33,688 bases of DNA, taken from a virus. Taxonomy: Duplodnaviria; Heunggongvirae; Uroviricota; Caudoviricetes. Shown one piece after another: positions 509 through 31,933 of this stretch. Below the pieces are notes generated by a model that did no database searches, had not been told where the DNA came from, and was given only the letters and a program-made list of their open reading frames with translations. The stretch is from the IMG/VR virus record IMGVR_UViG_3300012909_000001, positions 1-33,688 of that record; one strand, written 5' to 3'. Position numbers and translations under genes: made by a program. Positions within the stretch are counted from its first letter, which is position 1. Every line of letters begins with the position of its first letter.

Positions 509-3500
509 TTACCTTGAAGAGAACTCATCTTTCATTATCTCGTAGATTTCATCATCTTCATATCCTTCATTCTTTAACTCCTCTTTTCTGTCATCTCTTT
601 CTTCTTTAGTGACTTTTCTCTTTCTTCTTACAGATTTACCATCTTCTCCTTCTTTAATAAGTTCCATTACTTCTTTGTAAGTCATATCTTTAGATTTAGT
701 TGGAACCTCATCTCTCATTCTTTTTCTAAGCTCTTTTTCATACTTAGCAGGAGTTAAATCTTTTTCATCAAGTTCAGCTTTAATTTCCTTTTCTTTATCT
801 TCTCTGAATTTCTTAAGAGCTGCTTTAGGTCCACCACCTTTAATATACTTATCAATCCATGATGTAGTTTCGAATTCTTTCTTATCATACCAAGGCATTT
901 CATCTCTGTTAAGTATTCTTGGAAGAGGAGATACTTTAAATACATTCTCTTTGAAATCTTTCTTAGCATCTGCTGTAGCTATAGTATTCATAAGTTTACC
1001 TGCATCCCAAAGATACTTAAGGAAAGCAAGTCTTTGTACATCAGAACTTAAAGCTTGAGGATTAGTCCAGTTAGATATAGAACCAATCATTCTTGTCAAT
1101 TGATTATCTGCAAAATTATGAAATTCTCTTCTTTTAGATTTTTTATCATCATCATCATCCCATGTTAATTTCTTAATAAGTAGAAGCATTGCCATAAATG
1201 TAAGTTTGATTCCGAGTTCTTTAGCAATAGCTTGTAAATTACCTACTTCTTCAGAAGACATGTTACTATTTTTATAAGCTGTATTCTTTATTTTCAATTT
1301 AGAGTTAACAGCTTCAAGTGGATAGTTAAGAGTTTCTACTACTATAGACTGAGCAAAATCAATGAATTCTTTTGTATTATTAGCTTCTCTTTGTATTCCT
1401 TTTTCTCCACTATATAAGTCATAAAAATATTTGGCAGCAACAAATCCTGTAAGTCCTAATCCAGCTATTGCTGATAGAGGAGTAAGTCCAAATCCAGTAA
1501 ATAAAGTTAAAGCACCACCTGTGATTAAAGCAGGGTTATTCATTGCTAATGTTCTGTATCTACCAGTTTGTTTCTTCTTACCATCATTAATGATATCAAT
1601 ACCTTCTCCTTTAGAGAATCTTTGCATAGCATGTTCTGGCATCCATTTCATGAATAAAGTCATGGCTCTACCCCATATATTCTTAGTAGCATCAATAACA
1701 TCTAAATTATCATAGTTACCCTGAGACCTTGATATAGCATGTTTAATCTTATTCTTAGTCAGAAGATATTGATTATTAGTTAAATCTACTTCATCAATAT
1801 CAAAGTTCTCCCAGTTAGAAATATTTTCTACTGTCCTGAACTCTGGTTTAAGTACAAGCTTTCCATTTATATTATCATAAGCAGGAAACTGTTTACCATC
1901 AAATATAGGTCTCTCATTTCCTCCTATATCTTTTATCTTAGTATCCATAAGTACTGATAAAAGAATAGCACCCTGATTCTTGAACTCAGGATTCTCTACA
2001 GCAAATTGATAGATATTAGTTAATTTCTCATAATCAAACTGAGACTTATCTGCATGTCTTTCAAGCTCATTCTTTCTGTCCTGAATAAGATTCATATTAT
2101 GAACCAGTACTTGTAGCTTCTGAAGCTCTTGTACTTTTTTAGATTGCTCAGGAGTAAATCTTTCAGGTAAGAATTTAATGAAATTAGCAAATGCCATGAA
2201 ATTATTAGCTTCTGCTATATTACCTGACTTCCAGTACTTACCTGTCTTATCCATAACAAGACCTGAATTTTTACCTTCAATCCTGTTAAAGATACCTGAT
2301 ATAGGATTAAGACCAAGACCTTTTACAATAATTACTTTAAGTATACCTTGTATAATACCTGCTGTATTTAAATCAAGACCAAGCTCTTCAATCTTATTCT
2401 CAATATGTTTTTGGAACACAGCTTCGAATTGTTCTTCAGTTAGTTCTTTAATATCTTTCTCAGTTACTACTTCATAGTATTGAGGTCCATCTTCAGTTTG
2501 TTTTTGTACATATCTTACACCATCTACTTTAAAACTTGTATTTATACCTTTGTTATGTCCTATTTCTTTAAGACTTGTAAGATGTTTAAGAAGTTCTTTC
2601 TCATTATCTGTAAGTAAGTGCCCTTTCTTGTTATCTACATATTTCTTGATAAAAGGTATGGTAGACATTTTATTTATCATAGCAGCAAACCATGTTCCCT
2701 TACTCAGATTATCACCTAAGAAAGAAGCAGAGCCTCTGTATTTTTCATTCTCTCCTTTAATTACTCTGGCTACCCAATTCTCAAGCCTCTCAATACTTCT
2801 CTTTCTTTCCTCACCTTTCTCACTTTTTATAAGTTTATGTGAATCCACAATAAGATTAGCAATAGGCATTGTATCTTGTTTAGCTTTTTGCAATGCTGAC
2901 ATTTCAAGTAAAGCTGATGTTACTTTATTTATATCTGTAGAATAACTTTTAAGCACACTGGCTGTAGCTTCTTCTCTTGCCTGAGTATAAGTTCTTCCTT
3001 TTTGTACAAGAGCTTGTGTAAGCTCTGAAATCTCTCTTTTACTTCTGTCAGAATAGTTTTTAGATATACCATCTTTAGTGAAATCTCTACCTCTTTCATA
3101 GAACATTTCTTTAAATGCATGTAAAGACTTAGTAAATAACTTACTTCCTTTCTGTAATTTCTTAGCCTGAGCTATAGTCTCAAGAAACTCATTCTCAAAT
3201 TTAGCATAAGACATATCAGATATATCAGATTCATTATATAATGGATTGATATAATCTGAATAGATTTCTTTCATAAGTTGCCAGTACTCTAATTTATCAG
3301 GGTCCTGAAGTACTTCATTGAAATCTTTGTTATAGTATCCTGAGTCTGCATATATTTCATCACCTGTTGTTGAATCAAATGTTACATATATATCTTTAAT
3401 AGGAGCAAATCTTATATTCTGAACATCAGAATATACTGATTCTGTATTAATACCACCAGCTCTAAAGTTTACTTTCTCTGCTGAGTTAGGTGAGTTATAA

Positions 3501-6500
3501 TTAGATATGAAAGCCCAAGGGTCTACCTTAGCTACATCTCTGTGTCTGAATCTATTGTTTGTATCAGATAGTAATGATTCTTTCTGTATTTGTAAATTCT
3601 CAAGACTATTAAGTACTTTACTTATTTCTTCTTCATATAATGGACCAAGCATATCTCCAAGATAGTTCTCATATCTTAGCATTTCTGCTTCTGAAAACTT
3701 AAAGTGTTCTCCATACATATCTTCATACAAATCTTTTACAGATTTTATCTTTCTGAAATCAATAACTTCAGTATTTTTTTTAAGCCATTCTACTTTATCT
3801 TTGTATTTCTGTTCATCAGTTAAATCAGAATTAGAATTGATTTTTTTATATTCATAAAGTTTTTTGTTGAAAGCAGGAGAGATAACATTTATAATATTAC
3901 CTGTCTTATTTCCAGCTTCTGATTTTTCAAATATAAAGTCAAATCCTTTCTTATCCAGCTTTCTTATAGATAAAGCAAGTTTATCCTGGAATGTTTTAAC
4001 CTCAGCTTCTCTTAAAGCTACTTTAGTTTCCAGTGTAGATTTAAGTACTTGTGTAAACACACCATCATCTGTTGATGATGAAGTAATACCAAGAAAGGTT
4101 TTCTCAAGCCAGTTAATATCTTTTTTGTTTTCAAACATAGATGCTATATCTTCTGTTGTGAGAGCTTTGTTATTAATTACATTATTAACATAACTAATAT
4201 CAGATTCAAGTATTACATCTCTTAACTGATTAAGCTTATCTTTGTATTTCAGATTCAATTCATCTACTGCTAAAGATACTTTAGCAAAATCAGGATGATT
4301 ATAAGAAGCCAGAGTCTCTCTGTTAGGTTGTACTTTATTATCAAGAGATACTCCCTTTACAAGCTGATACAGAAATTCAAGTCTGTCTTTTATTTCATCC
4401 ATATCAAACTTATTATCTTTATATGAAGCATTATCAAGTACTTTGTTTAAATCTGTGATATCAGAATCAATAGCATGAAACATAAGATTAATATCATTCT
4501 TATTTAAAGAATCAATATCATTTTTGATTTTAGCTTCTATATTAGTAAGTCTGTCAATCTGAATAGCAATAGTTGATATATTTTTCTTTGGATTTCTTCT
4601 ATCTTTATATAAAGTCTTAAGAGCCTGTTTTACTTTAGTAAGTTGAGATTCTTTATAATTTTTATATTCAATGAAATTATCTGTAACAGGTTTAGTTACT
4701 TCTCTTTGTTCAAATCTTGAAAAAGAAAATTCATTAGAATCTTGTATGGCTTTTTGATTATCTAATTTTACTTCAAACCAACCATTACCATATTCATCAG
4801 TAGTTCTAATAGGATTATAACCTTGCTTCTTTAATATATTCTGAACTTGATTTTCATAAAAATTATATATAGGTTTTAATGCACCAAATCCTTGAGGGCC
4901 TTCTACATTTTCAAGTTCTTGTTTAAGTTGATTAATTTCATTTTGTTGAGAATCAGATAATTCAAGAGCATTATCAAATTTATTAGCTTTTAATATTTTA
5001 ATAGTATCATGCTTTCCTAGTGATTGACCATGTTTCCAATTATCATTATAGTCAGATTCACTCACAAGATTAAAACTTTTATCAGTTACTACTAAATATG
5101 CATCACCTATATCTGTACCAGGAATAAAATATTCACCATTTTTAACAACTTCTGGATATTGTTTTATTTGTTTTATTCTATCTTCTTTTTGTCTTTTAAA
5201 TTCTTCTAAAGTAGTATGACCTTCAACTTTACTAGCAGTATCTCCAGATGGAAATAAAACTTTTTCATATCCTTTTTTGGCAGAATCTTGAATAATAGAT
5301 TTAACAAAAAATGTTACCCAGTTATTATCTTTGTTTAAAAGTTGTAGAAATTTATTAGAAGTAGTATCAGGTAAAATATTACCACTATCTGCTGGTGGCA
5401 TTAAAGGATTAGGTTGAATTCTTTCAATTCTATTTTTATCTAAATTATCTTTATCTCTACCTTTCTGAAATAAATCAGATTGTAGTTCAAGTATTCTTCT
5501 TGTTTTTAATTCATCAGCACTTTTAGCTAATTCATCAAAAACATTCATAGGTTCACCTCTTTCTATTCTATTATTTACATCAGCAGAAGTTAATTCATCA
5601 CTTCTAAACCATCCAATACCATTATCAGTACTAAATTGAGCATGGCCTTTAATAGATGGAATAATTAGTGGAGTAGATATTTCTTGTTCTGTATAGTTAG
5701 CACCACCTGGAACTGTTAAGTTTGAATAATAACTGCTATTTTTTGAGTTATCTAAAAGTTTTCTGGTATTATCAAATTCTTCTTGTGTAATGTAAATATA
5801 ATCTTCTCTGTCATAAGAGTCATTTTCTGGGTCTGTTCCTTTAACTTTATAATATCTAAGTTCTTCAGATACTGGATTTTGAAGATTTTCATATGTATAA
5901 CCATCATGTACAAAATATGCACCTTCTTGATAATCTATATATTTTTTATCTTTAGTAATATCAACTTTAATGGTATAACTATAATTAGAAGCTAAATCTA
6001 AAAGAATATCTTCTCTGTTAGTTTTACCTGAATCAAATATTAATTGCTTTTGTTCTTTAGGAATACTAAGCTCTGTTAGTATTTTATCTAATGACCAGTT
6101 ATTTCTCTCTCCTTTATTAAATATTTCTACAGCTCTGTTAGAAGAAAGTATCTCTACAGCTTTTAATTTATAAGCTACTCCTTCATATTTAGAGAATGAT
6201 TCATCAGATTGATTCTGTAAACTCATAGCAGAAGCAAGCTTTCTTGATGGATGTATATTTAATTCAACACCATCTTTCATTTGGTTTAATGAAACTACAG
6301 TACCATACTGAGTAGCATGATACTGTGAGTTATATTGGCTTTCTATTTTTTTAACTTTACCATATAGAGAAGACTTAGATGGATTATTGGCATCATATGG
6401 AATGAAGCCAGCCAATCTGTCTGAGTACTTTGTAAACTTGATGTTATCAAATTTATCTAATAGTTCATTTTTTATTCTGTTCTGAATATCTTTTTCTGTA

Positions 6501-6514
6501 ACCTCACACGCCAT
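509..6514 (-). CDS. 2001-aa putative virion ejection/cargo protein with an N-terminal enzyme-like (E-x-QSD) domain and C-terminal hydrophobic segments
   Basis: Long ORF adjacent to the vRNAP, largely helical and charged. TM-like stretches near the C-terminus (LITGGALTLFTGFGLTPLSAIAGLGLTGFVAAKYF; IKLTFMAMLLLIKKL). The position matches the large co-ejected proteins that flank crAss-like vRNAP genes. Confidence 0.75.
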   Translation of the reverse strand: MACEVTEKDIQNRIKNELLDKFDNIKFTKYSDRLAGFIPYDANNPSKSSLYGKVKKIESQYNSQYHATQYGTVVSLNQMKDGVELNIHPSRKLASAMSLQNQSDESFSKYEGVAYKLKAVEILSSNRAVEIFNKGERNNWSLDKILTELSIPKEQKQLIFDSGKTNREDILLDLASNYSYTIKVDITKDKKYIDYQEGAYFVHDGYTYENLQNPVSEELRYYKVKGTDPENDSYDREDYIYITQEEFDNTRKLLDNSKNSSYYSNLTVPGGANYTEQEISTPLIIPSIKGHAQFSTDNGIGWFRSDELTSADVNNRIERGEPMNVFDELAKSADELKTRRILELQSDLFQKGRDKDNLDKNRIERIQPNPLMPPADSGNILPDTTSNKFLQLLNKDNNWVTFFVKSIIQDSAKKGYEKVLFPSGDTASKVEGHTTLEEFKRQKEDRIKQIKQYPEVVKNGEYFIPGTDIGDAYLVVTDKSFNLVSESDYNDNWKHGQSLGKHDTIKILKANKFDNALELSDSQQNEINQLKQELENVEGPQGFGALKPIYNFYENQVQNILKKQGYNPIRTTDEYGNGWFEVKLDNQKAIQDSNEFSFSRFEQREVTKPVTDNFIEYKNYKESQLTKVKQALKTLYKDRRNPKKNISTIAIQIDRLTNIEAKIKNDIDSLNKNDINLMFHAIDSDITDLNKVLDNASYKDNKFDMDEIKDRLEFLYQLVKGVSLDNKVQPNRETLASYNHPDFAKVSLAVDELNLKYKDKLNQLRDVILESDISYVNNVINNKALTTEDIASMFENKKDINWLEKTFLGITSSSTDDGVFTQVLKSTLETKVALREAEVKTFQDKLALSIRKLDKKGFDFIFEKSEAGNKTGNIINVISPAFNKKLYEYKKINSNSDLTDEQKYKDKVEWLKKNTEVIDFRKIKSVKDLYEDMYGEHFKFSEAEMLRYENYLGDMLGPLYEEEISKVLNSLENLQIQKESLLSDTNNRFRHRDVAKVDPWAFISNYNSPNSAEKVNFRAGGINTESVYSDVQNIRFAPIKDIYVTFDSTTGDEIYADSGYYNKDFNEVLQDPDKLEYWQLMKEIYSDYINPLYNESDISDMSYAKFENEFLETIAQAKKLQKGSKLFTKSLHAFKEMFYERGRDFTKDGISKNYSDRSKREISELTQALVQKGRTYTQAREEATASVLKSYSTDINKVTSALLEMSALQKAKQDTMPIANLIVDSHKLIKSEKGEERKRSIERLENWVARVIKGENEKYRGSASFLGDNLSKGTWFAAMINKMSTIPFIKKYVDNKKGHLLTDNEKELLKHLTSLKEIGHNKGINTSFKVDGVRYVQKQTEDGPQYYEVVTEKDIKELTEEQFEAVFQKHIENKIEELGLDLNTAGIIQGILKVIIVKGLGLNPISGIFNRIEGKNSGLVMDKTGKYWKSGNIAEANNFMAFANFIKFLPERFTPEQSKKVQELQKLQVLVHNMNLIQDRKNELERHADKSQFDYEKLTNIYQFAVENPEFKNQGAILLSVLMDTKIKDIGGNERPIFDGKQFPAYDNINGKLVLKPEFRTVENISNWENFDIDEVDLTNNQYLLTKNKIKHAISRSQGNYDNLDVIDATKNIWGRAMTLFMKWMPEHAMQRFSKGEGIDIINDGKKKQTGRYRTLAMNNPALITGGALTLFTGFGLTPLSAIAGLGLTGFVAAKYFYDLYSGEKGIQREANNTKEFIDFAQSIVVETLNYPLEAVNSKLKIKNTAYKNSNMSSEEVGNLQAIAKELGIKLTFMAMLLLIKKLTWDDDDDKKSKRREFHNFADNQLTRMIGSISNWTNPQALSSDVQRLAFLKYLWDAGKLMNTIATADAKKDFKENVFKVSPLPRILNRDEMPWYDKKEFETTSWIDKYIKGGGPKAALKKFREDKEKEIKAELDEKDLTPAKYEKELRKRMRDEVPTKSKDMTYKEVMELIKEGEDGKSVRRKRKVTKEERDDRKEELKNEGYEDDEIYEIMKDEFSSR
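4760..5730 (-). other. Discrete domain in the 2001-aa protein (GGANY...GWFRSD...LELQSDLFQ...W..FVK..I..SAKKGYEKV.FP...FYE), possibly a divergent GNAT fold
   Basis: The motif string is visible in the translation and resembles a recurrent domain of large phage virion proteins. The strand/helix order fits GNAT motifs A and B, with an ~110-aa insert. The fold call is inference. Confidence 0.4.
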
Positions 6515-6534
6515 AACTTATTTTTTTGAATGTA

Positions 6535-6542
6535 CAAAGATA
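6535..6542 (-). promoter_or_regulatory. Bacteroidota sigma70 -7 element (TATCTTTG) upstream of the 2001-aa gene
   Basis: Minus-strand TATCTTTG matches TAnnTTTG in the 38-bp intergenic gap, 20 nt before the ATG. No TTG -33 element at 19-nt spacing. Confidence 0.5.
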
Positions 6543-6552
6543 CATATTTTTA

Positions 6553-9500
6553 TTAACATTTCTTAATCTCTGGTAATCTTGATTGAGAGAATTTTTCTCC
6601 CATCTCTGTTTGTATTTTGGAGGGTTTAATTTCTAATCCTATTTCCTGAGCATATTTATATAAAGCTGAAGCAATACCTTTTCTTCTAAAGTTTTGGTTT
6701 ATAAATATATTATTAGAATAATATTTACCATCTGTATCTTTCCAAAAACTTACAGTGCCTACTGTTTGGCCTTCTCTTTTTACTGATAGAGATAACTTAT
6801 CTTTATTACTTCTTTGTTCAGGGTTATCTATTTTTCCATTTATACCATCATATATCTCAAAATCAAATTTATCCCCATCTTTACTATAAAATTCTCTACC
6901 TGAAAACTCTTCTTGTGGACCACCTGTTTCAAATGTTCCACTATTGAATTTATTAAGGAAATTATCTATTGAGAAGTCTTCCTGTTTCATTTCTTGTATC
7001 TCATTAACCTCTATAGTTTGTACATTTATATTTGTATTACTTAAAAGTTCAAATACTGTATTTCTTGTAGCATCTGAATATGTACTTCCTGTTATAAATC
7101 TAATCATGGAAGCAATAGCATCTTTAAAGTGGTCTAGTAAAGTCTTACCATTATGCATTATATTATCAAGTGTGTTGGTAAAATCTTCTGATACAAATAC
7201 TCCTGCTGTAAACTCATATAAGTTCTTAGTATAGTATTCATTTGGTAACTTCTGCTTAGCTATATTATGAAGAGCTACAAGCTTATCTATAAACACAGGA
7301 GTATTTTCTCCAGGAGTATAAACATCATCTGTCATAGTACCATATTTGTCTAATTGACTTATTGTTATACTATGTATAATCTCTTCAAGAAGAATTTCTT
7401 CAACCACACTATTCAGATTATCTGCATTGATACCTTTCTTCATCATAAGCTCTGATATAAGATTAGGATTCAGATAGATTGTATTATCAGTCTTTCTGTA
7501 AACTCCTGTACTTAAATCTCCTTTAGATGTCATTACAGCTTCAATCTTAACTTTAGTTGTATTGTCTATATAAGGAGTAAGTTGTTCTGCAAACTCTCTG
7601 TATTTACTATTAGGAGAATTATATAATTGCTCCATCAGAGAAGTAATACCTTTAGACAAATCAAGAACCTGGTCCAGAACTAAAGCAGGTGTTGCCTGTA
7701 TAGCTCCTGAATTATTCACAACTGTAGTATCTTTACCAACTTCAGGATATATAATAGATTTCTGATTTGAGTTATTTGGATTGTATTCATTAAATCCAAA
7801 TGTACCAAGTACAGGAATTTGTACATATTTATCTCCATCCCATTGGAATAGTTTGTATTGATTATCTGAAAGCTTAATACTTGTATCTCTCATAGCAATG
7901 AACTGATAAGCATTATCTCTTAGTGAGAATTCAGTAAGCTCATTGAAGAATCTTATTTTGTTTATCTCTTCTTTACTTGCATTGTATCTGTTTCTTTCTT
8001 TATTAGCTTCAAGATTAACCATAGCAAACTCTTCTATGTTTGTATTCACAGGAGAGAAGATTCTGGCTTCCTCAGGATTATGCTGATAGAACTGTTTAAT
8101 GAAGTTCTCCATCAAATTAGATATATTCCAACCTGCTCTGCTTCTGTTTATATTTCTGATATTCTCAGATACTCCTGCTGCTGTTAAATATTTAACATTA
8201 ACAAAGTCTCTGAATCCAATAGCTCCATTTTCATTATTAGCAAGATAAGCATATGATGCTAAGTCTTGAGCTAACTTTCTTGGAGTCATTGGCTCACCAT
8301 TAAATGTACCTAAATCAGTTTTATCATCCTGGATTAATTCCATAAATGAATTATACTTATCTGTTTTATCAAAATTAGTATTGAAATCAGTTTGATGCTT
8401 AATAATAGATGGTGCTCCTGTTGTCTGGATTCCATCAAATTGTAAAGCTTTCAAAAGCTCATTAGTATACATAAGAGGATATCTCTTAGATACTTTGAGA
8501 TTATTCATATAACTTGCAAGAGATTCATTATCATCTCTGTCAAAGAATAGTCTTTCTCTCTCTGCTGATACATCTCCCTGGAATAATCCTATGTTATTAG
8601 TAGAGTATAAATAATCTTTCATAGATGAAACTACTCTGTATTGCAGGTCCATCTTTTGTTTCTTACCTAAGTCTTTACCTTTGTTCTCAATAATACTATC
8701 TATATAATCAGTAATAAATTGCTGTTTATATGGGAAGTTAATATCCATTATATCCTCTGCTGAAGATACTGATTGTATAAGTACAGTACCTTCAGTTGTA
8801 GTAGGTTTGATATAGAAATCTCCAACTAATGTATAATCATTCTTATCCACAGGAGGATTTTCCTGAAAGTCATCTTTATGAATGAATTTACCAACAAGGT
8901 CTTTCACATTACTGATTTCTTCTTCATATCCCATATCATTAATACCTTGTATTCTTTCAAGTACATTGAAATAAGATATACCTAACCCTGATGTAGAAAG
9001 ATTAATAAGAGATTGGTATTTACCAAGATGCTTAGCTTCTTCTTCTAATCTGAAGAATTTCTGAAGTGTAGCAAGTTGTATACCACCATCCCATGTTTTT
9101 AAATCTTCCTGGTTGATAAGATTATCATACAGAGCATCACCTGTCATTCTTGCAGAAGCTAACTGGTAATCTACTTCATTCATAAACTCAGTTCTGTTGA
9201 AGTTACCTTGCTCATCTCTTGATACTTTAATACCTTGACCAAATTCCTGTATAAGTTTACCTATAATAGTTTGTTCTGCATTAGAGTCAAACTCTGATGT
9301 AATAGATTTATTTTGTTCTTTAAGTTCTACATATCTTCTTAAAATAGGTTGAGAGATGAATAGAGATGGTAACTGTACACTTGATGGATTATTAGTATCC
9401 CTCTTAGTAAAGTTAGCCATATCAAATCCTCTGAATGTTAATTGTATTAATACATTCATTGTATAAGGATTTTCATTCCTTTTACCCATAATCTGAGCTT

Positions 9501-12500
9501 TGATATTATCTGTAGAGGAGTTCTGATTCTCTGTGTGGACATCTCCAATGTTTCTCTCTCCATCAAGTGTACCAATCTCTCCTAATGTACCATCTGATAC
9601 ATACGGACCTATCACTACTACTCTTGGAGCATAACCTGATATCTCTCCATCAACTGTTATTGTATCTTGTATTTTTAATTTATTTTCTAATCTTTCCATT
9701 TGAGCCTGGAATGTTACAGCATTAGAGTGTCCTCCAATACCAGTCTTTCCATCAGCTCCTAACTTCATCTGGTCTCTCTGATAATCATCAGAATAAGGTG
9801 TAAAGTAAGTATTATCTACAGAAGAGTTTAATCTGTCATTAATCAGGTTAGCTGTCTGTGTTGCATTATCAAATGAAAGAATCTTATTAATTTTCTTTTG
9901 TATATTTATATCTGGTGATGAGTATACTGATTTGTATATATCAACCATAGCATTCTCAAGCATCTTAGTTCTTCCTTTAAGAGAAGCAAACTTAGATTTA
10001 CCTTCTTCAGAAGTTAAGTGTGGAAGATATTCATCTTCAAACATTGATGCCATAAGCCTGTCTAAAGAACTGTTATTCTCAGAGTACTGTAACTTAGATA
10101 TCTTACCATTATCTTGTACTTCATAGTTAGATTTATATACTGTTCTTTTATCAATATCAAAATCCTCTCCTAACTGCTGTGTATGTTCTTTAGGAACTAC
10201 TAACATATCTCCTGAGGCTTCTGGTAAGAAGCCAACTACTCTTAAAATAGCACCTGACTGGTGAGAAGATGTAGGAATCCTGAATGAGAAGTTAGATAGA
10301 AGCTCATCATCAATCATATCCTGATTAAGTACAAGTATTCCATTCTGCATAGTTGAGTATGGCTCTTTAGTCAAATCTATAAGCTCTGTCTTTTTCTTAC
10401 CATCAGTTCCTATAGTAGTCTTTCTGAATTTAGATTGAAGCAGAACTTCAGACTCTTTCAGAGTTCCATCAACTACAGTAGCTTTAAGCTCTCCTGTATG
10501 ATTAGGGTCTAACCATACTACCTGAGATTTAACTTTAGAATCTAAATCAGCATCAGCAGTTACTTTCTCAAATCCTTCTGATGAAGATGAGATATGTTGA
10601 TTACCAGGAAGATTAATCTGAATTAATCTGTTGGTAATAATAGCCTGCATTAAAGATTCGAACTTATTAGAACCATTAGATAACCAGATAGGTAACATGA
10701 ATTCAAGTTCTCCCTGAGTATAAGTAAGTTCAAGATTATCAATAATCCCTTCAGGATATTGTCTTGTTGTTGTCTCTCTGTCAAGTAAAGCATGAAGAAG
10801 TTTAATAGTTTCATTAGTATCTACTGGTCTTCTTGTATCTCTGTTAAGTCCTAATTCATCATATAGAAGTTCTTTCTGTATATCAAAATACATAGACTCT
10901 GCATGAAACTTAATCTTATCTAAGTCTCTACCAGATACCATTCCATCTGTTGAAACAATCTTATCTTCATCTGCAAGTCTGTTATTTATAGTCTGAAGAA
11001 GTCCTTCTCCAAATACATTAGGAAATATTTTATTCTCTATTTTATTAATACCATTACCTAAGATAATTTTCCACATCTGTGAACCCATAGTAGTCATATC
11101 ATCCTGGTTCTTTTTAATGAACTTGGCTGTCTTGTATGGAGTATCCTGTTGAATCTTAAAGTTGTTTCTATCAAGAACAAGTGAAGATTCAGTTAATTTA
11201 TTACTATTGTATAACTCATCAAATGGAATGTTATACAAATCATTTACAGTTAATTTAGTATTGACAGCACCTACTTTATTAGCAGTCTGGAATGAAAGTC
11301 TTACATTCTTACCAGTCTTTTCTTCAAGTGATTCCATTTGTCTTCTCACAGCATCAAGTTTGAAATCCTTAGTCATCTGTGGAAGAAGTGGAAAAGAAGA
11401 AGATTTAATATACATAGTTCTGTTTACATTAGGTTTCCCTTCTGCATCATTGAATATGACATTACCAGAGTAAACTGGTTTAAGTGGATTCATTACTACA
11501 GCTAATTCTTTCTTATCAAGTTCTTCACCTGCAAGAAGTTTATTATAAGCTGATTGTACAGTAGTTCTTTCCTCAGTAGTTAATCTACCTTGTCTAAATA
11601 GAACATCAATATGCTCTTTCCATGTAGTATATTCCTGAGCATCAGTTCCTTCTATTTGGAAGTAACCTGATATCTCAGAGTTAGTATCTGCAAGTGTACT
11701 GAGAATTTTACTTCTTGTACTGTCAAGTGCATCTAATTGGTCTTCAAAATCCTCATTTGTATTTCTTGTTTCATATAAAGCTTGTATAGAATTCTCTGTC
11801 TCATTTAACTTAGTTAATAATACTTCATTGTTTTCAGATACAGAACCATAGTATTGTGTAATGAACTCCCTTGCTGTTGAAGTCATCTTAACAGGGTCAT
11901 TAACAAATATTTGTACATACTTATCTTCTTTAGAGTTAGCAAGTTTATTACCAGGGGCAATAAGCATAGCCATTCTCTTAGATATAGATTCTCCAATAGC
12001 TTTAGAGAAACCTACATTATCAATCTCTCCTGTTTCTTTATTTGTGAATTTTTTAACAGATGGAGCATACAAAGCCATATCACCTGCTATAAGCTGGTAA
12101 GTATTGTTTTGATTCAGATACTGGTTTACAACAAAATCATAAGCAGCAATCTGTGCTGTCTTATCTGTAGACAGAGTTGTATTAGCTCCTTTCTTAGATT
12201 TAAGGTATTTACTGTCAAAGAAGTTTATACTTAATTCTTTTGTTTCTTCTCTTTTAACAAAACCAGCATCATACCATGAACCTTTATTAGTTGTTGTATT
12301 TACTTTAGAAAGTACATCTGTGTGTATTACAGCAGCTATAATATCCTTAGCCTGGTCTCTGAACTTATCTCTGATAGCAGCCATTGTATCTAAGTCTTTA
12401 CTACCTTTAGATATAATATCATGTATAGTAGCACCATTCTCTGCTCTCATATTATTAAGTTCAGGAATAGATAAAAATCTCTTAGCAGCACCATCATAGT

Positions 12501-15500
12501 TTTTAATATTAGTTGGAGTGTTATAAGTACTGACAATCCTGTCAAACTCAGCAGCATATATCTGGTCAGTAACAAAGTTCAGAACTTCATCTGAAAGTAC
12601 TACATTATTATCTATCTCATTAAAGTCTTTGTAATCCAAATCTAATAAGGCAGTAGAGTATAGTACCATCTGTTCTTTATCAGATAGTGCAGGATTAAAC
12701 ATATGTCCCATTCTGAATTTCAAATCAGAACCAGGAATTACTTCTCCAAGCTTTCTCAATGTATTTTGGAAGAAAGCATATTGTGTAAGCATGTTATCTG
12801 TTGTAGCAAGCTTGTTTATCTTTCTGTCATCATATACTTTTTGTTTTACTTGTTTAATAGCTTCAAGAGATACGAAACTTACATCATAATAAGTTCTAAA
12901 CTTATCATTTGTTTTCAAAAGTTCAAGTATGTAGTTTCTTTTAGATAATGGTATCTGAGATAAAGCTAAATGATAAGGAGAATTAACATCCTTAAGTTGT
13001 TCTTTAATATCATAAACCATCATCTTCTGAATAGCTCCCTGAATAGATTTAGAACCTACCCTGAAAGACTTAGCTACTCTTGTACCATTAAGTTCTATTT
13101 CTAAATCAATTAAGCTCTCTACAACTCCTTTAGCATTTTCATAAGGATTATTTTCAGATTTCTCTAAAGTAATATTCTCTGTGTTTCTGTTATCAGGAGA
13201 ATTCATAATATCTCTTAAAGTAGATTTGAATACTCCAAGAATACCTGAGCTTGTAGTTATATTAAAACCTTCTTTCTCAATAAGAGCTGTTACTGTATTA
13301 GCATTTACATCAATACCAAGTTCAGATAATATCTCAGATACATCAGGTTGTGTCATAGTATCTGCCCTTAAAGCTTCAATTCTCTCTATAAGAGATTGTA
13401 CTGTTTGTTTGTTATAAACTCTTTCTTCATTTATGGTTTTGAACAAGTCAGAATTTCTGAAATTAGTCTGCCATTGTTGTTGCAATTTAATATCAGATGA
13501 AGATGAGTTTGGATTAATAATTCTAAGTGAATATGTATTTGTATCTCTGTTATAAGCATAGAGAACCATTTGCATATCTAATTTAGATTGAATCATTTTA
13601 TATAATATCTCATTTTGAATTTCTTCAGATGAGTTGTTTATCTTATTTAATATCTGGTTATACACAGGTACATCTTTCTTAGTCTCAAGTATAGAGATTA
13701 AATCCTCTACAGAAGATGGAAGACCTACCATAACTTCCACAAGAGATTGTATAACATCATCTACATCAATGTAATCATTAAGGTAAGCAAAATTAGTAAT
13801 ATTCTCCCTTGTTCTTGGTTTCTGTCTGTTAATACCTGCAAAGAATATTTTCAGATTATTAGAGAATGTAAGCTTAACATCTTTTTCAAGTGCTGACATA
13901 TTGAAACTATATTCAACTTCTCCATTATCATCAGCTATAACATCTTCTGAACCTGTTAACTCTTCTGCCAGGAACCTTTCGAACTTTTTATATAAGTCTC
14001 CTTTAGGAGTTGTACCTAAACCATTAGATATGATTTTATTTTTTTCTTTTACAACAGTTTCTAATTGTTCTATCTTCTCATTGAATCTGTCAATAAGAGG
14101 TAACATATCAGTATTATTAAGTGCTGTAAGGTTAGCTACTGTATCTTTGATTTTATCAATCTCTGGTTGCAGATATGAATCTACAGAAGAGTCTATCTTA
14201 GCTACTATATCAGCAAGATTAACTGTACCACCCTTAGTACTTATATCTGAAAGAACCAGATTAAATAAAGAGTTAGTTAAGACTTTCTGTTGTATAGGAC
14301 TAAGTGAACTTATCTGATTACTTTGAATCTTATCAAGCTCAGCTATTTGTTCTGGTGTAAATTCAAATCTTGAATAAAAATTAACATCATCGTCATTTAT
14401 CTCCATACCTTTAAGTATCCTCATAGCTTCTTCTTTAAGAGCATCAGGTATAGCTGTTATAGCTTTCTGTAATGTAGGATTATCTTGTTCATTTAACTCC
14501 TGAGCTGTCTCCATAGCAGCTTCCTGGATTTGCTCCTGCATTGTAAGAGTAGGAGCAACCTGAGATGCCTGAGCAGTTCTGAAATAAATCATAGGTTGTA
14601 CATCAGTAATCCATTTAGACTTACCATCTTTACCTTGTATTTCAAAAGATTTAATATTAGTCTTAACAGAATCTTTTATATATCCTTCATAAGTATTCTC
14701 TCCATGTTTATTTTCATATGGAACAATAGAACCTGTTTCAGATATCTGTACAAAAGGTCTGTTTTTATTTAATTGAGATTTAGATATGTCAAAGTGAGTC
14801 TTTCTAAACAGACCATCATTACCTTTGAAGTTTTTCTCAAGTATCTGAAGTACATAAGGTATAGACCTTTCAGTTATATTACCGAGGTTAATACCTGGTA
14901 AACTATCATATCCTTTTTCATTTCTGGCAACAGGATTTCCATCCTTATTAACAATCTTAATTACATTCTTATCAACAGATATATAATTAGTATTAATAGG
15001 AAACTTAGTTCTTCCTGTAGCAGAGTTTACACTATTGTTCTCAAGCTTATCTACCATTCTTGAATTCATACTGTCAACAGTGACAAACATATTCATGTAT
15101 TCACCTATCTCAAATTGAATATCAAGTCTTGTAGTAGCTCTGATTTGTTTTTGTATTTCTTTAGCTTTAGATAATGTCATTCCATATTGAGATTCTAATT
15201 CAGAATTCAATATAGGATTATTACCACCATTCAAAAGAACAGAGGCAATAATAGAATGTTTTATATTGTTATAAGCTACATCATTAATATCTTCTTGTTT
15301 ATGAGCATCATTAGTTATTACAGGAAGTGCAATTTGTTCTCCTGTATTAACTGTTCTGATTTCATATATTTGTCCTACCTGGAATTTATTAGCATCAAGA
15401 TTATTTACAAGCTTTGCATTTACAACTCCTGTAGAATCTTGTAGTTCATCAAATTTACTGGCTACAACTATCTTAGTATCTCCTGTAGCTTCAGTAAGAC

Positions 15501-18500
15501 TTATAGGTTTATTATCTGATTCTAATTTATTAAGTTTGAATAGACTACCAAATTTTCTCTCAGAGATAACTATCTTATTATTACCTGCAAGTATATTTTG
15601 TCTTAGTTCCTGATTTTCAAGTTTACCTTTCTTAATAATTTCTCTCTGTGTTTCAACAGGAGCAATATTAGAAGTATTATACCAATCAGTATCATGTACA
15701 TAGAATACAGCTTGTCCATCCAGTTGAGCAACCATAGGAAGCTTATTGTTATATTGGACAGAACCTGGTTCTACATTATATTTCTTAATCCAATTACCAA
15801 ATGTAATTTCTGATTTAACCCATGTATTATCTTTGAATTCCCAATCTGCTACTTTAAATGAATTTACATTATCAGGTACAACAACTTCAAGTGCTGTTCC
15901 TTCTTTAACAGCATCATAATCAAGTACGAAATGATTATCCATTTGTTCTGATTCATTAAGCTGAGCAAGTACAGGTAACTTAGATAATGTACCATCTGAA
16001 TTAGGTACATCTTTATATTGCACACCAAGGTATGCAGCTTTACTCTGTGGAGTAGCTGTTTGAAATTTCTCAGAGTAATTACCATCTTTCTCTACAGGTC
16101 TGTTATCTTTATCATAAGATACAGTCTTAGAATTATCTACAATAGCAGATGTAACAGCAAGATTAGTCTGAGTGATTACATCATCAGGAGCTAAGAAACC
16201 AGAAAGCATAGTTTCAGATAAAGTATCTAAGTTATAAATGTTATCATATATTTCTCCTGCATTGGAAGTATCTCTTCCAATAGCATTCCATGCATACTCA
16301 TATGCTTTAAACATAGTATCTACATTATCATAAGAAGTCTTGGCTATCCTGTCATTGATAAAATCTTCGAATTGAGCTTCCTTATCTAATTCCTTATCAA
16401 GCTTATCTGCTATTCTTGTATGTAAATCCACTAATGCTTTCTGTTGCTGTGGAGTTACTTTCTGAGCCTGGAACTCTCTTGGAGAGAACTCTTCAGGTCC
16501 ACCTGAATTAAGTAAACCTGATGAAAGCATTTTAGATAGTAAGTCATCACCAGCTTTATCATCTTCATCCTGCTCTTTAGTTCCCTCAGGAGTTCTTTCA
16601 ATTTCAGGTTCTACTACCGGAGCAGGTTCCTGGAAATTAGGATTAACTTCTGTGATTACTTCTGTAGCAGCTATTTGTGATTTCTTATTTTCTGCTGTAG
16701 CTACTAATCCTTCTGTAGCTATATTTGTTTTTACTGCATCTTCAACTACTGCATCAACCTGGTCTGCTGTTTGTGCATTCTTAATAGTTTGTACAGCTAC
16801 TTTTTCTTTTTTCTTATTAGCTTCTTCCTGGAAATATTCCTGGTTATAAGGATTAGTCTGTCTTGATAATTCAATTGTATTTTGGAAATCAACCTCATCA
16901 AATTTCTTTTTGAAATCTCTTAATTGTAAGTACTCATTGATATTACCTATATTATCCTTAACCAGATTATTTATATGTCTTACATAATTGTTATTTTGTT
17001 CAATATCTAATAAACCACCCTCTACAGAATCAATTAGTGAATCTACAGATTGATAGTCTTCAAGTCCTCTTGCTTTGTTATAAGCTTCAAACTCTTCTTT
17101 ACCCTCAAACTTAATAGCATTAAGTCTTTCCTGTAACTGAGTACTTGTTTGTTTGTTCAGAACTTTTTGTGCAGCAAGTTGAGCTATAGTCTCATAGTTA
17201 GGCTTATCTCCATGTTTTTCCTGTACATGAGATAGTTCTTTTACTACAGCTAAAGCTGCTGGTATATTATTTCTTGTTTGTTCTGATAAGTCCTGATTGG
17301 TTTTAATTCTCTCAAGACTTCTTTCAAAAGTATCAAGTGTACCTGTCTGCATTGCTTTAACAGCAAGATTAGAGAAACTCTTTTTCTCTAATTTGTCAGC
17401 TTCTTCATTCTTACCATCAGTTCTTAACTTAGCTATCTTAGCCTGGTAATCATCTACTTCAAATAAAGTATTACCAGTATTCATAACTATATGCTGAGCC
17501 AGTTGTTCATCTGTCACAGCTTTATCTATATTTTTATATAGTTGTTTAATTTCTTTTTTAGACTCTTTATTTTCTTTATACTGTTTCCTGTATTCAGGAC
17601 TTGTAGTATAGTCTAATGCATGTTTACCTGTACCTAATGCAGTAAATCCTCCACCCATTAAAAGAGTTTGTGCTACAACATCCATATAGAATGATGGATT
17701 AGCAAGCTCTTGTAATTGTTTTTGATAATCTTCTGTATAAGTAGGAGTAAGCTGTGTAGATATCTCTTCAAGAACCTCACCTGGAAGCCCATGAAAAATC
17801 TTAGCAGCACCTGTATGTCCTGCTACATTTGAACCAATCTTGCCAATAGCAGTATCATTAATTAATTCTGCTCCTCTTCCATAAGCTTTTGAAAGCTGTT
17901 TAAGTCCAGGAGTTTTTTCTGCTAATCTTGTAAGAGGTTTAAACATTTTATCCCCTATTTCTCCTACATACTTCTCAGAACCAAGTTCTTTCAGAGACTC
18001 AGTGTATCCATATATTAAAGCATCATCAGCACTTATATCTTTTTGTATATCTCCTGTATTAGGGTCATATATTTGATTAAGGTCAGACTTAACTTTATCA
18101 ATTTGATTTCTTATATCAAATAATCTAGCATTATCTTCAGCAGACTTATTTACTTTATTATCTAATTCTTTTTCTTTTTGTTGAAGTATAACAATAGTAT
18201 TTGCAGCCTCTTTCTCAAATGCTACTCTTGCAGATTTGGAAACAAGTATTTTTTCATTACCTTCAGAGTCTGTAACTAATTGAGTTTGCCCAATATATTT
18301 ATTAGCAGTATTTTGGTATGTCATAGGAGTAGCAGTAGCTTGAGCTAAAAGCTCACCTGTACCAATAAGTCCTTTCTCTACATATTTAATAGCAGCAAGT
18401 TTAGCTAACTGTGTTTTAGTTAGCTGAGTTCCCATATCTCCTAATAGAATTTTAAGACCTATTCTCTCAGCAAGTGGAGTTACTACAGCTTTAGTTGCAG

Positions 18501-19530: not shown

Positions 19531-19539
19531 AATTTGTTT

Positions 19540-21102
19540 TTAAAAACCTATATTAAGTGGGTCTCCACTTATATAATACTCAGCATAGAATGGTTCTCCT
19601 TTGCTTGGTGTAATTAATATTGTTGTAGCAACTCCTGATTTACCATCTGATTCTGTAGCTGGCATAAAGCTTGGAGTTCCTTTTACTATTTCAATACTCT
19701 CAATCTTAGCTCCTGTATATCCTGGCATATCTATTGTCTTACCAATCATTTTTCTAAGATTTATCTTCTCTCCTTTAGCAGTACCTTTACTCATATAAGG
19801 TTTACCATTTATAGTACCAAAATCTACATAACCATCTTTACTTGCCAGTGTAGTCTCAATTCCTTTCTGTTGGAATTTCTTATCAACAATATCAATCTGG
19901 TCCTGATTGAAACCTAAGTTTCTGAAGTAATCAGTTCCACTTCTCTGATTTATGTTTAATGAGTTATCCAGTGTAGTTAAATATTTAAATTGTTGTGGAT
20001 ACTTAGCTGGATTATTTCTGATTACATTAATATACTTATCATAATCTTTAGGGTCTTTAGCTCCAATAGTTTGTGCCAGCTTACCTACTTCCATATTATA
20101 AGTCTTCATTACTTCTTTACCTTCTTTAGTATAGTTGTAATAGAATGAAGCATCTTTAGTAAAACTTACAGGAGTAGCCCCTGCTTTACCAAGACTTGCA
20201 GAATAAGCTGCTGCCTCAAGTTTGTATTTTTGTTGGAGTTCTTCAAGACCATAAGCATCTACTTTCTTATCAGCTTCAGCTTTACCTTGTGTATATTCAA
20301 ATTGTTTTACATATTCAATCTGTTTAGCAACACTACTGTTAGGGTCTGTAAATTTAAGTCTGTTTCCATCCTCATCATAATAAGTTCCAAATCCTAATTT
20401 CTGTTCTTGTTTGAAATAAGGGTCATATCCCTTAGCATCAATGAAAGCTGTATAAGCATCATCCAATTGGTTTAATACTTCCCTGGAAGTAGTTTTAGTA
20501 TCTATATACTTACCATTAGTAGTTGCTGTAGCTTTAGCCCATATATCTGGTTTAGAATTTTTAAGTTCAGATATAAACTCTCCTGTTGGGTCCTGCTTAT
20601 CAAATATATCTTCATATTCAAAAGTCTTGTCCATACTCCTGTTAGGACTTGATTTCCACTGGTCAAGATAATACTTCTTAGCAGCTTCTCTTCTTGCAGG
20701 GTCTTTAATAGTTTTTAATTGCTCATTCATCTTGCCATACATATCTGCTGACTTCTGAATCTTATATATGTCTCCTGTTTTATAATCTGCTTCAAGCTCT
20801 CTTGTAAGTTTTCTTATTTCAGGAAGATTTTTTCTCCATTCATTTGTATCTCCACTTTGTAACTTAGTTGCAATCTCTTCAGATTTCTGATTATAGTAAC
20901 TTTGTTTATCAATAACTTTTTGTCTTTCTACAGGGTCATCTATATAATTAACATCCACATTATTAAATAAGTCAGTCTTAGCAAGAGCAATATCATAGTC
21001 CTGTTGTTGCGTAGTTAAGGCTTCCTTAATTAAATCCCAGGGTGGCTGGTATATCATGTCCTCAATAAATTGAGGCTTGGCTGTTTTATAAAATCTTCCC
21101 AT
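19540..21102 (-). CDS. 520-aa putative cargo/ejection protein
   Basis: Lies between the 562-aa cargo gene and the vRNAP gene and is coupled to the upstream gene by a TAATG overlap. Helical, cysteine-free. Function inferred from synteny only. Confidence 0.55.
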   Translation of the reverse strand: MGRFYKTAKPQFIEDMIYQPPWDLIKEALTTQQQDYDIALAKTDLFNNVDVNYIDDPVERQKVIDKQSYYNQKSEEIATKLQSGDTNEWRKNLPEIRKLTRELEADYKTGDIYKIQKSADMYGKMNEQLKTIKDPARREAAKKYYLDQWKSSPNRSMDKTFEYEDIFDKQDPTGEFISELKNSKPDIWAKATATTNGKYIDTKTTSREVLNQLDDAYTAFIDAKGYDPYFKQEQKLGFGTYYDEDGNRLKFTDPNSSVAKQIEYVKQFEYTQGKAEADKKVDAYGLEELQQKYKLEAAAYSASLGKAGATPVSFTKDASFYYNYTKEGKEVMKTYNMEVGKLAQTIGAKDPKDYDKYINVIRNNPAKYPQQFKYLTTLDNSLNINQRSGTDYFRNLGFNQDQIDIVDKKFQQKGIETTLASKDGYVDFGTINGKPYMSKGTAKGEKINLRKMIGKTIDMPGYTGAKIESIEIVKGTPSFMPATESDGKSGVATTILITPSKGEPFYAEYYISGDPLNIGF

Positions 21103-31217: not shown

Positions 31218-31931
31218 TTATAATCTGCTTTTTAATTCTTTTTTAACTCTTGATACAAGATTCTTAGTCTTATACATTTCGAAAGAACCATCTGGTTTAA
31301 GCCATACAATTCTTCTTGATTCTACTTTAAATCCACATTGCTCAAAAAGCAATTGGTATAAAGATAACTGTATTTGATATTTATTATAAGGACTATCAAT
31401 AAGGTCTTTAAATGGTTCAAGCATTTTCTTACCTTTATAGTTCTTAAACAAATCTTCATTTGTCTTATAGTCTACTATAATAAACTTACCTGTTTTAGTA
31501 TTATACAAAAGTATATCACAGGTACCAGCTATTCCAAATAGCTCAGAGAACATTTTAAGCTCAAACAGAAAAGGAATTACATGGTCCGGAATACTATCCC
31601 AGAAATTTATAATAGCCTGTTCAAATCCATTTGTAGCAGTATCACCTTTAGAGTATGTTTCTCCAAATGAGTGTGCCTGGTTTCCTCTGTTACATGCATT
31701 GTTTTTCTTATCTTCCCATTCCTGTAATACCTCTTCTTTAGAAATACCTCTTTTCCTTGCAACAAAGAAAGCTATCTTATCTGCATCAAAAGGTTCTGAG
31801 AATTTCTTTATAATAGAAGAGACAGAACTCAAGGTCCTGTCTCTATAGTTATAAGAATGTTGTTCTGAATTAAAATCCAGATTAGCAAAGAAATCTGTTA
31901 CATGTTTCTTTTTACTATTTATATCTTTCAT
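31218..31931 (-). CDS. PD-(D/E)XK (RecB/Cas4-like) nuclease
   Basis: 'RGNQAH...ELKM...IAGTCDIL...IVDYKT...KYQIQLSLY' contains motif I (H), E, G..D, D-Y-K and Q-x-x-x-Y. Confidence 0.85.
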   Translation of the reverse strand: MKDINSKKKHVTDFFANLDFNSEQHSYNYRDRTLSSVSSIIKKFSEPFDADKIAFFVARKRGISKEEVLQEWEDKKNNACNRGNQAHSFGETYSKGDTATNGFEQAIINFWDSIPDHVIPFLFELKMFSELFGIAGTCDILLYNTKTGKFIIVDYKTNEDLFKNYKGKKMLEPFKDLIDSPYNKYQIQLSLYQLLFEQCGFKVESRRIVWLKPDGSFEMYKTKNLVSRVKKELKSRL

Positions 31932-31933
31932 TC

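Follow-up and report, generated by a model that had tools for sequence, protein, structure and literature searches.

On comparison of sequences, the module junctions of both giant proteins in the window (the whole 33,688-nucleotide stretch of viral DNA analysed here) are marked by a short conserved peptide, hydrophobic-S-x-R-(E/D/N)-hydrophobic, which is repeated between modules at aa 1015, 1718 and 4209 of P0001 and at aa 596-602 of its partner, P0002. All copies in both giants are probably read by one shared, fast-evolving factor. The peptide was tentatively interpreted as a site at which a phage protease processes the giants, a reading to which we assign a probability of roughly 0.45. Coordinates are given in Table 1.

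Table 1. Coordinates of the giant proteins, their modules and the junction peptides within the window
Feature	Position	Strand	Remarks
P0001, 4325-aa giant virion protein	6553..19530	-	ORF; N-terminal region, RNAP core, zincin-like domain, GNAT, Cys tail
P0002, 2001-aa partner	509..6514	-	ORF; N-terminal MAC domain, inserted module of ~490 aa, junction, conserved core with hydrophobic segments
Half-motif A of site 1, LLSKMLSSGLLNSGG, P0001 aa 997-1011	16498..16542	-	conserved in close relatives
Site 1, FSPREF, P0001 aa 1015-1020	16471..16488	-	retained by the majority of 33 aligned relatives; GGP extends to 16503
Site 3, FYSRFEF, P0001 aa 1718-1724	14359..14379	-	NDDDVN immediately upstream
Zincin-like domain, P0001 aa ~3949-4149	7084..7686	-	EEIIH at 7372-7386; E4106 at 7213-7215
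Site 2, ancestral C-terminal A-B copy, NSGTFETGGPQEEFSGREF, P0001 aa 4196-4214	6889..6945	-	matches family C-terminus
GNAT module of P0001	6601..6888	-	Pfam PF00583, E 1.2e-6; between C-terminal junction motif and conserved tail
Conserved C-terminal tail of P0001, RLPEIKKC	6556..6579	-	in 24 family members irrespective of preceding sequence
Degenerate left-hand copy ESFSKYE, P0002 aa 105-111	6182..6202	-	precedes inserted module
P0002 junction motif, EFSFSRFE, aa 595-602	4709..4732	-	conserved in most of 35 orthologues

The source phage is crAss-like, and both giants are probably packed into the particle and injected. P0001 is, by homology, a counterpart of the two-barrel RNAP core of phi14:2 gp66 and belongs with the virion RNAP polyproteins of crAss-like phages: aa 2620-3147 matched gp66 by BLASTP (E = 4e-27), hhalign returned a probability of 97.9, and the DFDID motif was found in the sequence. 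There were 67 long homologues of P0001, and 35 orthologues of P0002 sharing a core that begins KRP-x-TDNF. As is characteristic of polyvalent proteins, unrelated effector domains are combined in one virion protein, the GNAT being the example here; orthologues carry Kinase-PolyVal, AAA_33/zeta-toxin-like, ART-PolyVal and helicase modules. The cysteine of the RLPEIKKC tail was invariant (alignment A3).

All peptides quoted in a sequence-only reading of this DNA were recovered on the minus strand at their positions, including GGPQEEFSGREF of site 2 at 6889-6924. That reading had listed six copies of a single motif, made its interpretation depend on their being commoner than chance and conserved in orthologues, and placed the internal copies at module junctions following acidic or low-complexity linkers. 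Four of the six proved to be conserved sites, and for these the remaining expectations were borne out. The strict pattern EFS.R matched four times in ~30,900 ORF residues of the phage, always within the two giants. Across 27 relatives in the clade, a strict regular expression was matched 61 times against 6.4 expected from shuffled sequences, with 42 of the 61 falling at the three homologous junctions. An HMM built solely from the C-terminal copies of the family detected site 1 in eight relatives, scoring as high as 19.6 where shuffled sequences reached 3.6 at best.

All four junction positions are kept in dozens of relatives. The consensus at site 1 is x-F-[ST]-P-R-[ED]-[FI], and at site 3 it is F-S-[RQ]-R-E-[LF] following an acidic run; the P0001 family ends ...SGG-x-[YF]-S-x-R-E-F-RLPEIKKC, the motif copy standing directly before the tail. 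Most of the 35 P0002 orthologues have [FYL]-S-[PA]-R-[EDN] 5-12 aa ahead of the core, after an N-terminal part that varies between 95 and 1490 aa. Linkers upstream of the motif were acidic and rich in indels, that ahead of site 1 requiring 8.1 alignment columns per residue. Among close relatives half-motif A has the form L-L-x-x-M-L-x-SG-x-L-x-S-(G)G, and it recurs ahead of the family C-terminus. Its ending, L-x-S-G-G, bears a resemblance, and only that, to Gly-Gly processing of the Ubl/JAB type, where the cut follows a GG closing a beta-grasp domain; the Ubl candidate of the phage ends LAAGG plus 12 aa.

Some peptides were rejected as copies. EKFSQSR, at the C-terminus of P0001, is made up mostly of the last residues of the GNAT module, joined to the R of RLPEIKKC. 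DEFSSR at the C-terminus of P0002 (512..529, minus strand) is one variant of a C-terminal ending, EF-x-x-R, typical of the family; orthologues end EEFRNR, QEFKGR, EEFRGR or differently. EFSLR (aa 3867-3871; 7918..7932, minus strand) was not counted, as it lacks an acidic linker ahead and the aligned positions in relatives read EF[TSA]L[KRDE]; it is not clearly a junction motif.

The copies within a protein were more alike than copies from other proteins, both for curated 6-mers (permutation p <= 1e-4) and in an uncurated test of 36 non-redundant giants (17.8 versus 14.2, sd 0.6), neither value being corrected for phylogeny. Independent lineages have switched flavour jointly at all sites. In a gut clade, three homologous joints carried F-x-A-P..Q (DDFMAPKQI and DEFFAPAQF, with DDDVFYAPPVQ in the partner), while the 4419-aa giant of the cultured Flavobacterium phage FPSV-S29 contained NDMI exactly three times, at its three homologous joints (none of 2000 shuffles reached three), and its 1596-aa partner carried DDFEYM. 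One subclade had Asn after the Arg at every site, partners included. Synonymous codons differed among copies, which indicates selection on the peptide and no recent conversion of the DNA; nor does domain duplication explain the repeat, since the domains following the joints were mutually unrelated (hhalign probability 2-12%). Change of the copies together across lineages points to one common reader. Such a reader is required by any cleavage or sorting code, as proposed in the sequence-only reading, which was upheld in this respect. The capsid protein was 58% identical to that of the FPSV phages, between which same lineages the motif differs completely; this makes a socket in capsid or portal unlikely, so that the reader would be expected in the fast-evolving giants.

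Exchangeable modules lie at the motif or adjoin it, namely GNAT, Kinase-PolyVal, a zeta-toxin-like kinase, helicase and an HExxH module. In the window, motif copies bracket the GNAT module and the 490-aa insert of P0002, where ESFSKYE aligns with FFSQHE, the single junction copy of the closest orthologue that has no insert. The same pattern of two copies was seen in P0072 and P0075, where they bracket Kinase-PolyVal, and in P0089 and P0092, where an ESPRNT...ESARNT pair flanks the module. Structure comparison returned GNAT folds for the GNAT module; modules 42-44% identical to it occur without the motif in phi14:2 g067 and phi13:2 gp127. Units fused here are separate genes in phi14:2 (gp67/66/65), the N-terminus of gp66 mapping within ~60 aa of site 3, and in the L014 lineage the gene is split at site 3. 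Terminal cysteines occurred on both chain ends at every split junction, a hint that the chains stay together rather than separate.

The zincin-like domain of P0001, which the sequence-only reading had suggested as a processing enzyme in cis, was borne out as a conserved domain. It aligned with aa 199-362 of phi14:2 gp65 by hhalign (probability 90-96), HEIMH matching EEIIH, and E4049, E4050, H4053 and E4106 were invariant in 30 sequences. Comparison by VIA gave Z = 8.7 with the PhiM1 ejectosome protein (8vb2_A) and Z = 7.0 with anthrax lethal factor (1yqy_A; rmsd 4.1, 152 aligned residues); a Foldseek search of the PDB with the domain gave no zincin match. Rather than HExxH with a downstream Glu, the clade has EExxH, Glu having taken the place of the first His, with the downstream Glu still invariant. 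Canonical HExxH is seen in the corresponding domains of phi14:2 gp65 and FPSV-S29. There was no Pfam match to MPTase-PolyVal in P0001 at E <= 0.1. Annotation with PHROGs of the head-gene block, which includes several families lacking known function, revealed no prohead protease, and no protease of HK97 or assemblin type was recognised near the head genes. The zincin-like domain of the giant itself is the most economical candidate protease, a choice weakened by Glu as first zinc ligand.

Processing is favoured by the four conserved positions, the concerted flavour switches, the bracketed modules, the genes split elsewhere and the zincin-like domain. A single phage-encoded factor would read the lineage-specific signal at every joint of both cargo giants, with cuts close to aa 1015, 1718 and 4209 in the longer chain and close to aa 105 and 596 in the shorter. 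This would free the N-terminal region, a segment from the middle, the body comprising RNAP and zincin-like domain, the GNAT, and the partner's accessory module as individual proteins, either within the head or once ejected. We infer the involvement of a protease as reader, as well as its identity and the position of the scissile bond. Fused crAss RNAP polyproteins have been proposed as 'likely cleaved', possibly with a role for the zincin-like protease of gp65 orthologues, and no cleavage motif was named (Drobysheva et al., 10.1101/2020.03.07.982082). Peptidase domains have likewise been hypothesised to process polyvalent proteins (Iyer et al. 2017, PMC5512222), among which P1 DarA and DdrB are processed, while N4 vRNAP is packaged uncut despite its peptidase domain (PMC5512222). 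In the literature found, cleavage products were reported for no crassvirus and the junction peptide was not described; virion mass spectrometry of crAss001 lists gp47, gp49 and gp50, with processing unmentioned (PMC10172136).

Against a simple cleavage role stand the structural model of site 1 and the stand-alone homologues. Sites 1 and 2 were modelled with AlphaFold. The helix preceding site 1 (aa 989-1006) was predicted at pLDDT of about 88-90, and the site itself (about 65) occupied a structured loop of moderate confidence between this confident helix and the next domain, outside the disordered linker; site 2 had pLDDT of 30-45. The domain that follows site 1 also has stand-alone homologues, and these open with the motif (MKEYVFSPRQF, MEKDFLFTPREF, MPREF); they adjoin HTH and RadC genes in bacterial mobile-element contexts, in one case on a bacterial chromosome of 3.17 Mb, where a polyprotein substrate is absent. 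The proposed cleavage or sorting code was supported in part, the two observations counting against a pure cleavage site.

These same observations lend themselves to an uncut docking or coupling tag, the main rival and a possible though doubtful explanation. Here the junction peptide, together with the preceding helix at site 1 and the C-terminus, would act as a short linear motif recognised by a single socket, situated in the giants themselves or in a partner such as portal, capsid or cargo. It would serve to load the modules, set their order or string them together, both in the head and during ejection, with the chain remaining intact. Concerted evolution demands a common partner, not necessarily a protease, and retention of the motif at the N-terminus of stand-alone homologues suits such a tag. 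So does the confidently predicted helix before site 1, to the end of which the motif is bridged; the best fold-search alignments, which are weak (Z about 5 or less), cover this helix plus the next domain. One copy stands where an anchor would naturally be placed, at 8 aa from the conserved Cys tail, the paired cysteines at split junctions suggest that modules stay connected, and the C-terminal region of the uncut N4 vRNAP is required for encapsidation (PMC5512222). Against this, no socket was found, and the well-conserved capsid is an unlikely site for one; the copies flanking each inserted enzyme module resemble release sites more than anchors, and smaller cargo proteins lack the motif. An unlikely elaboration is a universal coupler, in which the same plug at each module boundary would fit one socket in the cargo proteins with no cutting; the socket would string the modules of both giants in fixed order for passage through the tail, and lineages with split genes would link their chains through paired terminal cysteines (...KKC and stop, then M-A/S-C...).

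Alpha-helix starts are signalled by a hydrophobic staple, an S/T-x-x-E capping box and Pro at N1, and F-S-P-R-E-F could be such a local element after a floppy linker, having no shared reader. This is quite improbable. Hydrophobic-[ST]-x-x-[EDNQ]-hydrophobic does fit every close-clade copy, the modules after the motif are predicted to be helical, and stand-alone homologues keep the motif as their first residues. However, in the model of site 1, the one site modelled in this respect and at moderate confidence, the motif was extended and the next helix began 8 residues later (T1026-P1027, helix from aa 1027), rather than at an N-cap within the motif. A local cap explains neither the conserved Arg nor the joint switches to F-x-A-P or NDMI and the covariation within genomes, and only 8 residues follow the C-terminal copy. 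That the motif is a mere crossover linker for swapping module cassettes among phages, with no role in the protein, is very improbable, for although variable modules are inserted at it and bracketed by it, and one GNAT module recurs in unrelated giants of other phages, just 5-6 codons are common with differing synonymous sites, sites 1 and 3 are conserved without module exchange, and foreign cassettes would bring foreign flavours, yet copies in a genome share the flavour of their lineage.

Known maturation proteases recognise L/I-x-E (T4 gp21), S/A/G-x-E (phiKZ gp175) and the R and M sites (herpesvirus assemblin). Like the junction peptide, these are short consensus sequences repeated in several head-internal proteins, and the herpes M site offers a further likeness in that one junction copy stands near a C-terminal anchoring tail; unlike them, the junction flavour turns over completely between related lineages. 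The VENN motif of CdiA and PxxxxDPxGL of Rhs similarly are conserved short peptides that delimit exchangeable modules, but they mark a single C-terminal tip, whereas the junction peptide is present in multiple copies in each giant and these co-vary between the two. A further close comparison is with the phi14:2 block g067-g066-g065, which has the same gene block and RNAP core, the zincin-like domain corresponding to that of gp65; there, however, the units are separate genes rather than fused, the F-S-x-R-E peptide is lacking and the zincin is HExxH rather than EExxH. Polyvalent proteins too are giant, with swappable enzyme modules, a zincin-type domain and hypothesised processing, but that work names no recognition motif, and its best-studied case is the uncut N4 vRNAP (PMC5512222).

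Should the coupler prove true, crassvirus cargo would leave the head as one linked train with co-evolving couplings. If, instead, the peptide is a protease site, the long-standing idea that crAss polyproteins are cut would become testable.

The window represents the first 33.7 kb of a phage genome of 100,434 bp. Its gene order was crAss-like, with portal, capsid and terminase just outside the window, muzzle-type and cargo genes, and then ORFs of 4325 aa (P0001) and 2001 aa (P0002, its 'partner') on the minus strand. By capsid protein, the nearest cultured relatives were phages of Flavobacterium psychrophilum belonging to the FpV4/FPSV type, at 58% identity. P0001 contained the two-barrel RNA polymerase core known from gp66 of Cellulophaga phage phi14:2 (BLASTP E = 4e-27; hhalign probability 97.9), and had a C-terminal GNAT module preceded by a domain with homology to the zincin-like one in phi14:2 gp65. 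At every gene-to-gene junction of the cargo block, one protein had a C-terminal Cys and its successor a Cys near residue 3, as in the window (see table), in phi14:2 (...SNTIC*/MACK and ...KQECK*/MSCK), and at loci L014 (...LLIKEC*/MDC) and L009 (...NKIC*/MSDC...SIEC*/MAGC); the loci compared with the window were L001, L009, L013 and L014. Between the tail/cargo genes and the remaining structural block sat a holin-like gene and two genes of exonuclease families, PHROG 298 and PHROG 704 (a DNA-repair exonuclease); no prohead protease was recognised by PHROGs within the structural block.

A sequence-only reading had proposed that a short motif recurs at domain boundaries of both giants, and the peptides it quoted were all found where it placed them. 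When P0001 was aligned with its 67 long homologues, and P0002 with its 35 orthologues, four junction positions proved conserved; distant P0002-like proteins (P0105-P0190), being without the junction region, were left out of this comparison. Site 1 was preceded by a half-motif (A), L-L-x-x-M-L-x-SG-x-L-x-S-G-G, and by an acidic stretch that varied; at site 2 the GNAT insertion separated the motif from the conserved tail of P0001. The spacing between motif and core in the P0002 family held for N-terminal parts of 95 or 1490 residues. Two other peptides previously taken for copies proved otherwise: EKFSQSR consisted largely of the GNAT module's end, with the tail supplying its R, and DEFSSR* was a variant of a C-terminal ending. 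EFSLR at aa 3867 of P0001 had no linker upstream and was not clearly a motif copy, and the smaller cargo proteins upstream contained no conserved copy.

Positions of the junction motif and associated features
Feature	Record	Position	Sequence or remark
Site 1	P0001	aa 1015	FSPREF; x-F-[ST]-P-R-[ED]-[FI] in most relatives
Site 3	P0001	aa 1718	FYSRFEF; consensus F-S-[RQ]-R-E-[LF], acidic run precedes
Site 2	P0001	aa 4209	FSGREF; ancestral C-terminal element of family, ...LLSSGLLTSGG-D-x-YS-x-REF-RLPEIKKC(K)
P0002-family junction			[FYL]-S-[PA]-R-[EDN], 5-12 residues upstream of conserved core (KRP-x-TDNF...)
Domain after site 1	window	16171-16485	P0001 aa 1016-1120
Stand-alone homologues	L005; L006; L007	6001-6360; 3289-3921; 561-1079	
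Zincin-like domain, E-E-x-x-H	window	7372-7386	EEIIH
Zincin-like domain, downstream Glu	window	7213-7215	E4106
GNAT module	window; L001; L002; L003	6601-6888; 12001-12306; 6001-6324; 3001-3303	
Cys pair	window	6556-6579; 6506-6514	...RLPEIKKC*; MAC
FPSV-S29 giant	L013 (MK764449.1)	3769-17028	4419 aa, ending FRLPEIKNCN
FPSV-S29 partner	L013 (MK764449.1)	17058-21848	starts MACTVE
FPSV-S29 NDMI-type joints	giant	aa 1207, 1865, 4403	
Exonuclease-family genes	window	31218-33193	
Holin-like gene	window	33276-33617	
Ubiquitin-like candidate	genome, outside window	82583-83023	

The motif was commoner than in shuffled controls: among 27 giants of the clade, a strict regular expression produced 61 matches where 6.4 were expected, 42 of them at the three junctions. 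An HMM built from the C-terminal copies only identified site 1 in eight relatives, the highest score being 19.6, compared with 3.6 for the best shuffled sequence. On these figures, a chance origin of the junction repeat is ruled out. Within P0001, the top ungapped 12-mer pair was site 1/site 2, with a score (37) inside the shuffled range; a long alignment from gapped Smith-Waterman self-comparison was spurious, and the site 1 region had no match by tblastn against cultured phages or by an IMG/VR scan. Homology among the post-joint domains was rejected (hhalign probability only 2-12%), while DNA-level function and recent gene conversion were ruled out by synonymous codon differences between copies. 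Since the downstream domains are unrelated and synonymous codon positions differ, the repeat represents a selected peptide, rather than a duplicated domain or a recent DNA conversion.

Copies within the same protein were more alike than copies across proteins (p ≤ 1e-4, for curated 6-mers permuted without phylogenetic correction). Uncurated windows around sites 1 and 3 behaved similarly (17.8 vs 14.2, sd 0.6, for 36 non-redundant giants, again uncorrected for phylogeny). Moreover, entire lineages had changed version at every site together. In a gut clade (P0031-P0063), site 1 read DDFMAPKQI and site 3 DEFFAPAQF; the corresponding version in the partner was predicted beforehand and then found, as DDDVFYAPPVQ directly ahead of RPITDNF. 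The 4419-residue giant of the cultured phage FPSV-S29 had exactly three copies of the tetrapeptide NDMI, at the equivalents of sites 1 and 3 and 13 residues upstream of its C-terminal ...FRLPEIKNCN, a number that 0 of 2000 shuffles reached; its partner junction was DDFEYM. There were also subclades that shared Asn or Asp as the residue after the motif Arg at every site, partners included. Judged by these comparisons, concerted evolution of the junction copies is the key new result. The peptides change together at four joints that are unrelated to one another and spread over two proteins, and therefore a single factor recognising all copies, or 'reader', is called for; it should reside in the fast-evolving giants themselves, because motif turnover is much faster than that of the capsid protein.

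Motif copies bracketed modules in several homologues. A Kinase-PolyVal module lay between two copies in P0072 and P0075, P0089 and P0092 had the arrangement ESPRNT/ESPRNA ... ESARNT, and the ~490-aa insert of P0002 was flanked by ESFSKYE and EFSFSRFE; in P0001 EEFSGREF was followed by the GNAT. In P0021, a ~300-aa module bearing HExxH was inserted at site 1, where it separated half-motif A from the motif; there was one motif copy, not two. The units fused here are separate genes in phi14:2 (gp67/66/65), where the gp66 N-terminus maps ~60 residues or less from site 3, and in metagenomic lineage L014 the gene is divided exactly ahead of the post-site-3 domain. The most likely reading, with a probability of about 0.45, is that the junction peptide is a putative processing site for a phage protease, the zincin-like domain of P0001 being the candidate enzyme; this reading accounts for the bracketed modules and the split-gene relatives, and agrees with published hypotheses.

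Cellulophaga phages phi14:2, phi13:2 and phi46:3, and an IMG/VR contig, carried the same GNAT module (42-53% identity) inside giant virion proteins that were otherwise unrelated; the GNAT is a mobile cargo module.

In fold comparisons the zincin-like domain resembled anthrax lethal factor (Z = 7.0) and, more closely, an ejectosome protein of PhiM1 (Z = 8.7). A Foldseek search of the C-terminal model against PDB returned GNAT matches only. The invariant residues of the zincin-like domain were E-E-x-x-H and a downstream Glu. Both this clade and the gut clade invariably had EExxH, while canonical HExxH was kept in FPSV-S29 (HEVIH) and phi14:2 gp65 (HEIMH); the EExxH form may have another metal site, or may be inactive. 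Complex prediction for the domain with the site 3 segment scored 0.01, which weighs neither for nor against.

A serious rival, possible rather than probable, is that the peptide is an uncut docking or coupling tag. It draws on the terminal cysteines paired at split junctions, on the structured context of site 1 predicted by AlphaFold, and on stand-alone homologues that carry the motif. The latter are small proteins corresponding to the ~100-aa domain after site 1 and begin with the motif (MKEYVFSPRQF, MEKDFLFTPREF, MPREF), so that at most a few residues could be cut off there. In bacterial DNA, their genes are neighbours of RadC and an HTH_3 regulator, in one case on a 3.17-Mb chromosome (GCA_042683965.1), and two of three proteins inspected (P0266, P0267) had an apparently membrane-spanning hydrophobic C-terminal stretch; the setting resembles an early or anti-defence region of a mobile element.

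In the site 1 model, a disordered acidic linker was followed by a helix (aa 989-1006, pLDDT ~88-90) and the loop SGGPEEFSP (pLDDT ~65); the E-F of the motif formed a bridge with L-N where the preceding helix ends, and a helical bundle began at aa 1027. There was no informative fold match for this model (Z ≤ 5.1). Site 2 fell in a low-confidence linker joining the zincin-like domain and GNAT. That the motif is a helix-start signal only is unlikely and explains less than processing or docking; a recombination scar, which also explains less, is very improbable.

The half-motif A helix resembles C-terminal tails found in distant clades (LLSLLEEKGLLNKIC), but their equivalence was rejected, as an HMM of A scored those tails not above controls. 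Half-motif A ends in L-x-S-G-G, as a ubiquitin-like candidate of the phage has LAAGG; the latter would need trimming after GG, because 12 residues follow. A link between the half-motif and a JAB peptidase of the phage is conceivable.

Crassviruses inject megadalton amounts of protein, and we know of no account of the packing, tail passage and activation of 4000-residue chains. They are the most abundant human gut phages (PMC10172136). Cutting of fused RNAP polyproteins (10.1101/2020.03.07.982082) and of polyvalent proteins (PMC5512222) has been proposed, sites not being given, and a search of crassvirus and polyvalent-protein literature, full text included, found no description of such a junction motif. 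The present analysis supplies exact residues for testing the cutting hypothesis, also in FPSV-S29, whose P0001/P0002-like architecture, with its own NDMI version at three joints, makes it a ready experimental system; as reader and sites co-evolve, the search can be confined to the giants. Should the peptide be a protease site, phages would have their own counterpart to the polyprotein processing of eukaryotic viruses, and the motif would offer a practical rule for delimiting effector modules across thousands of metagenomic giants; as a docking tag, it would define a cargo-sorting code.
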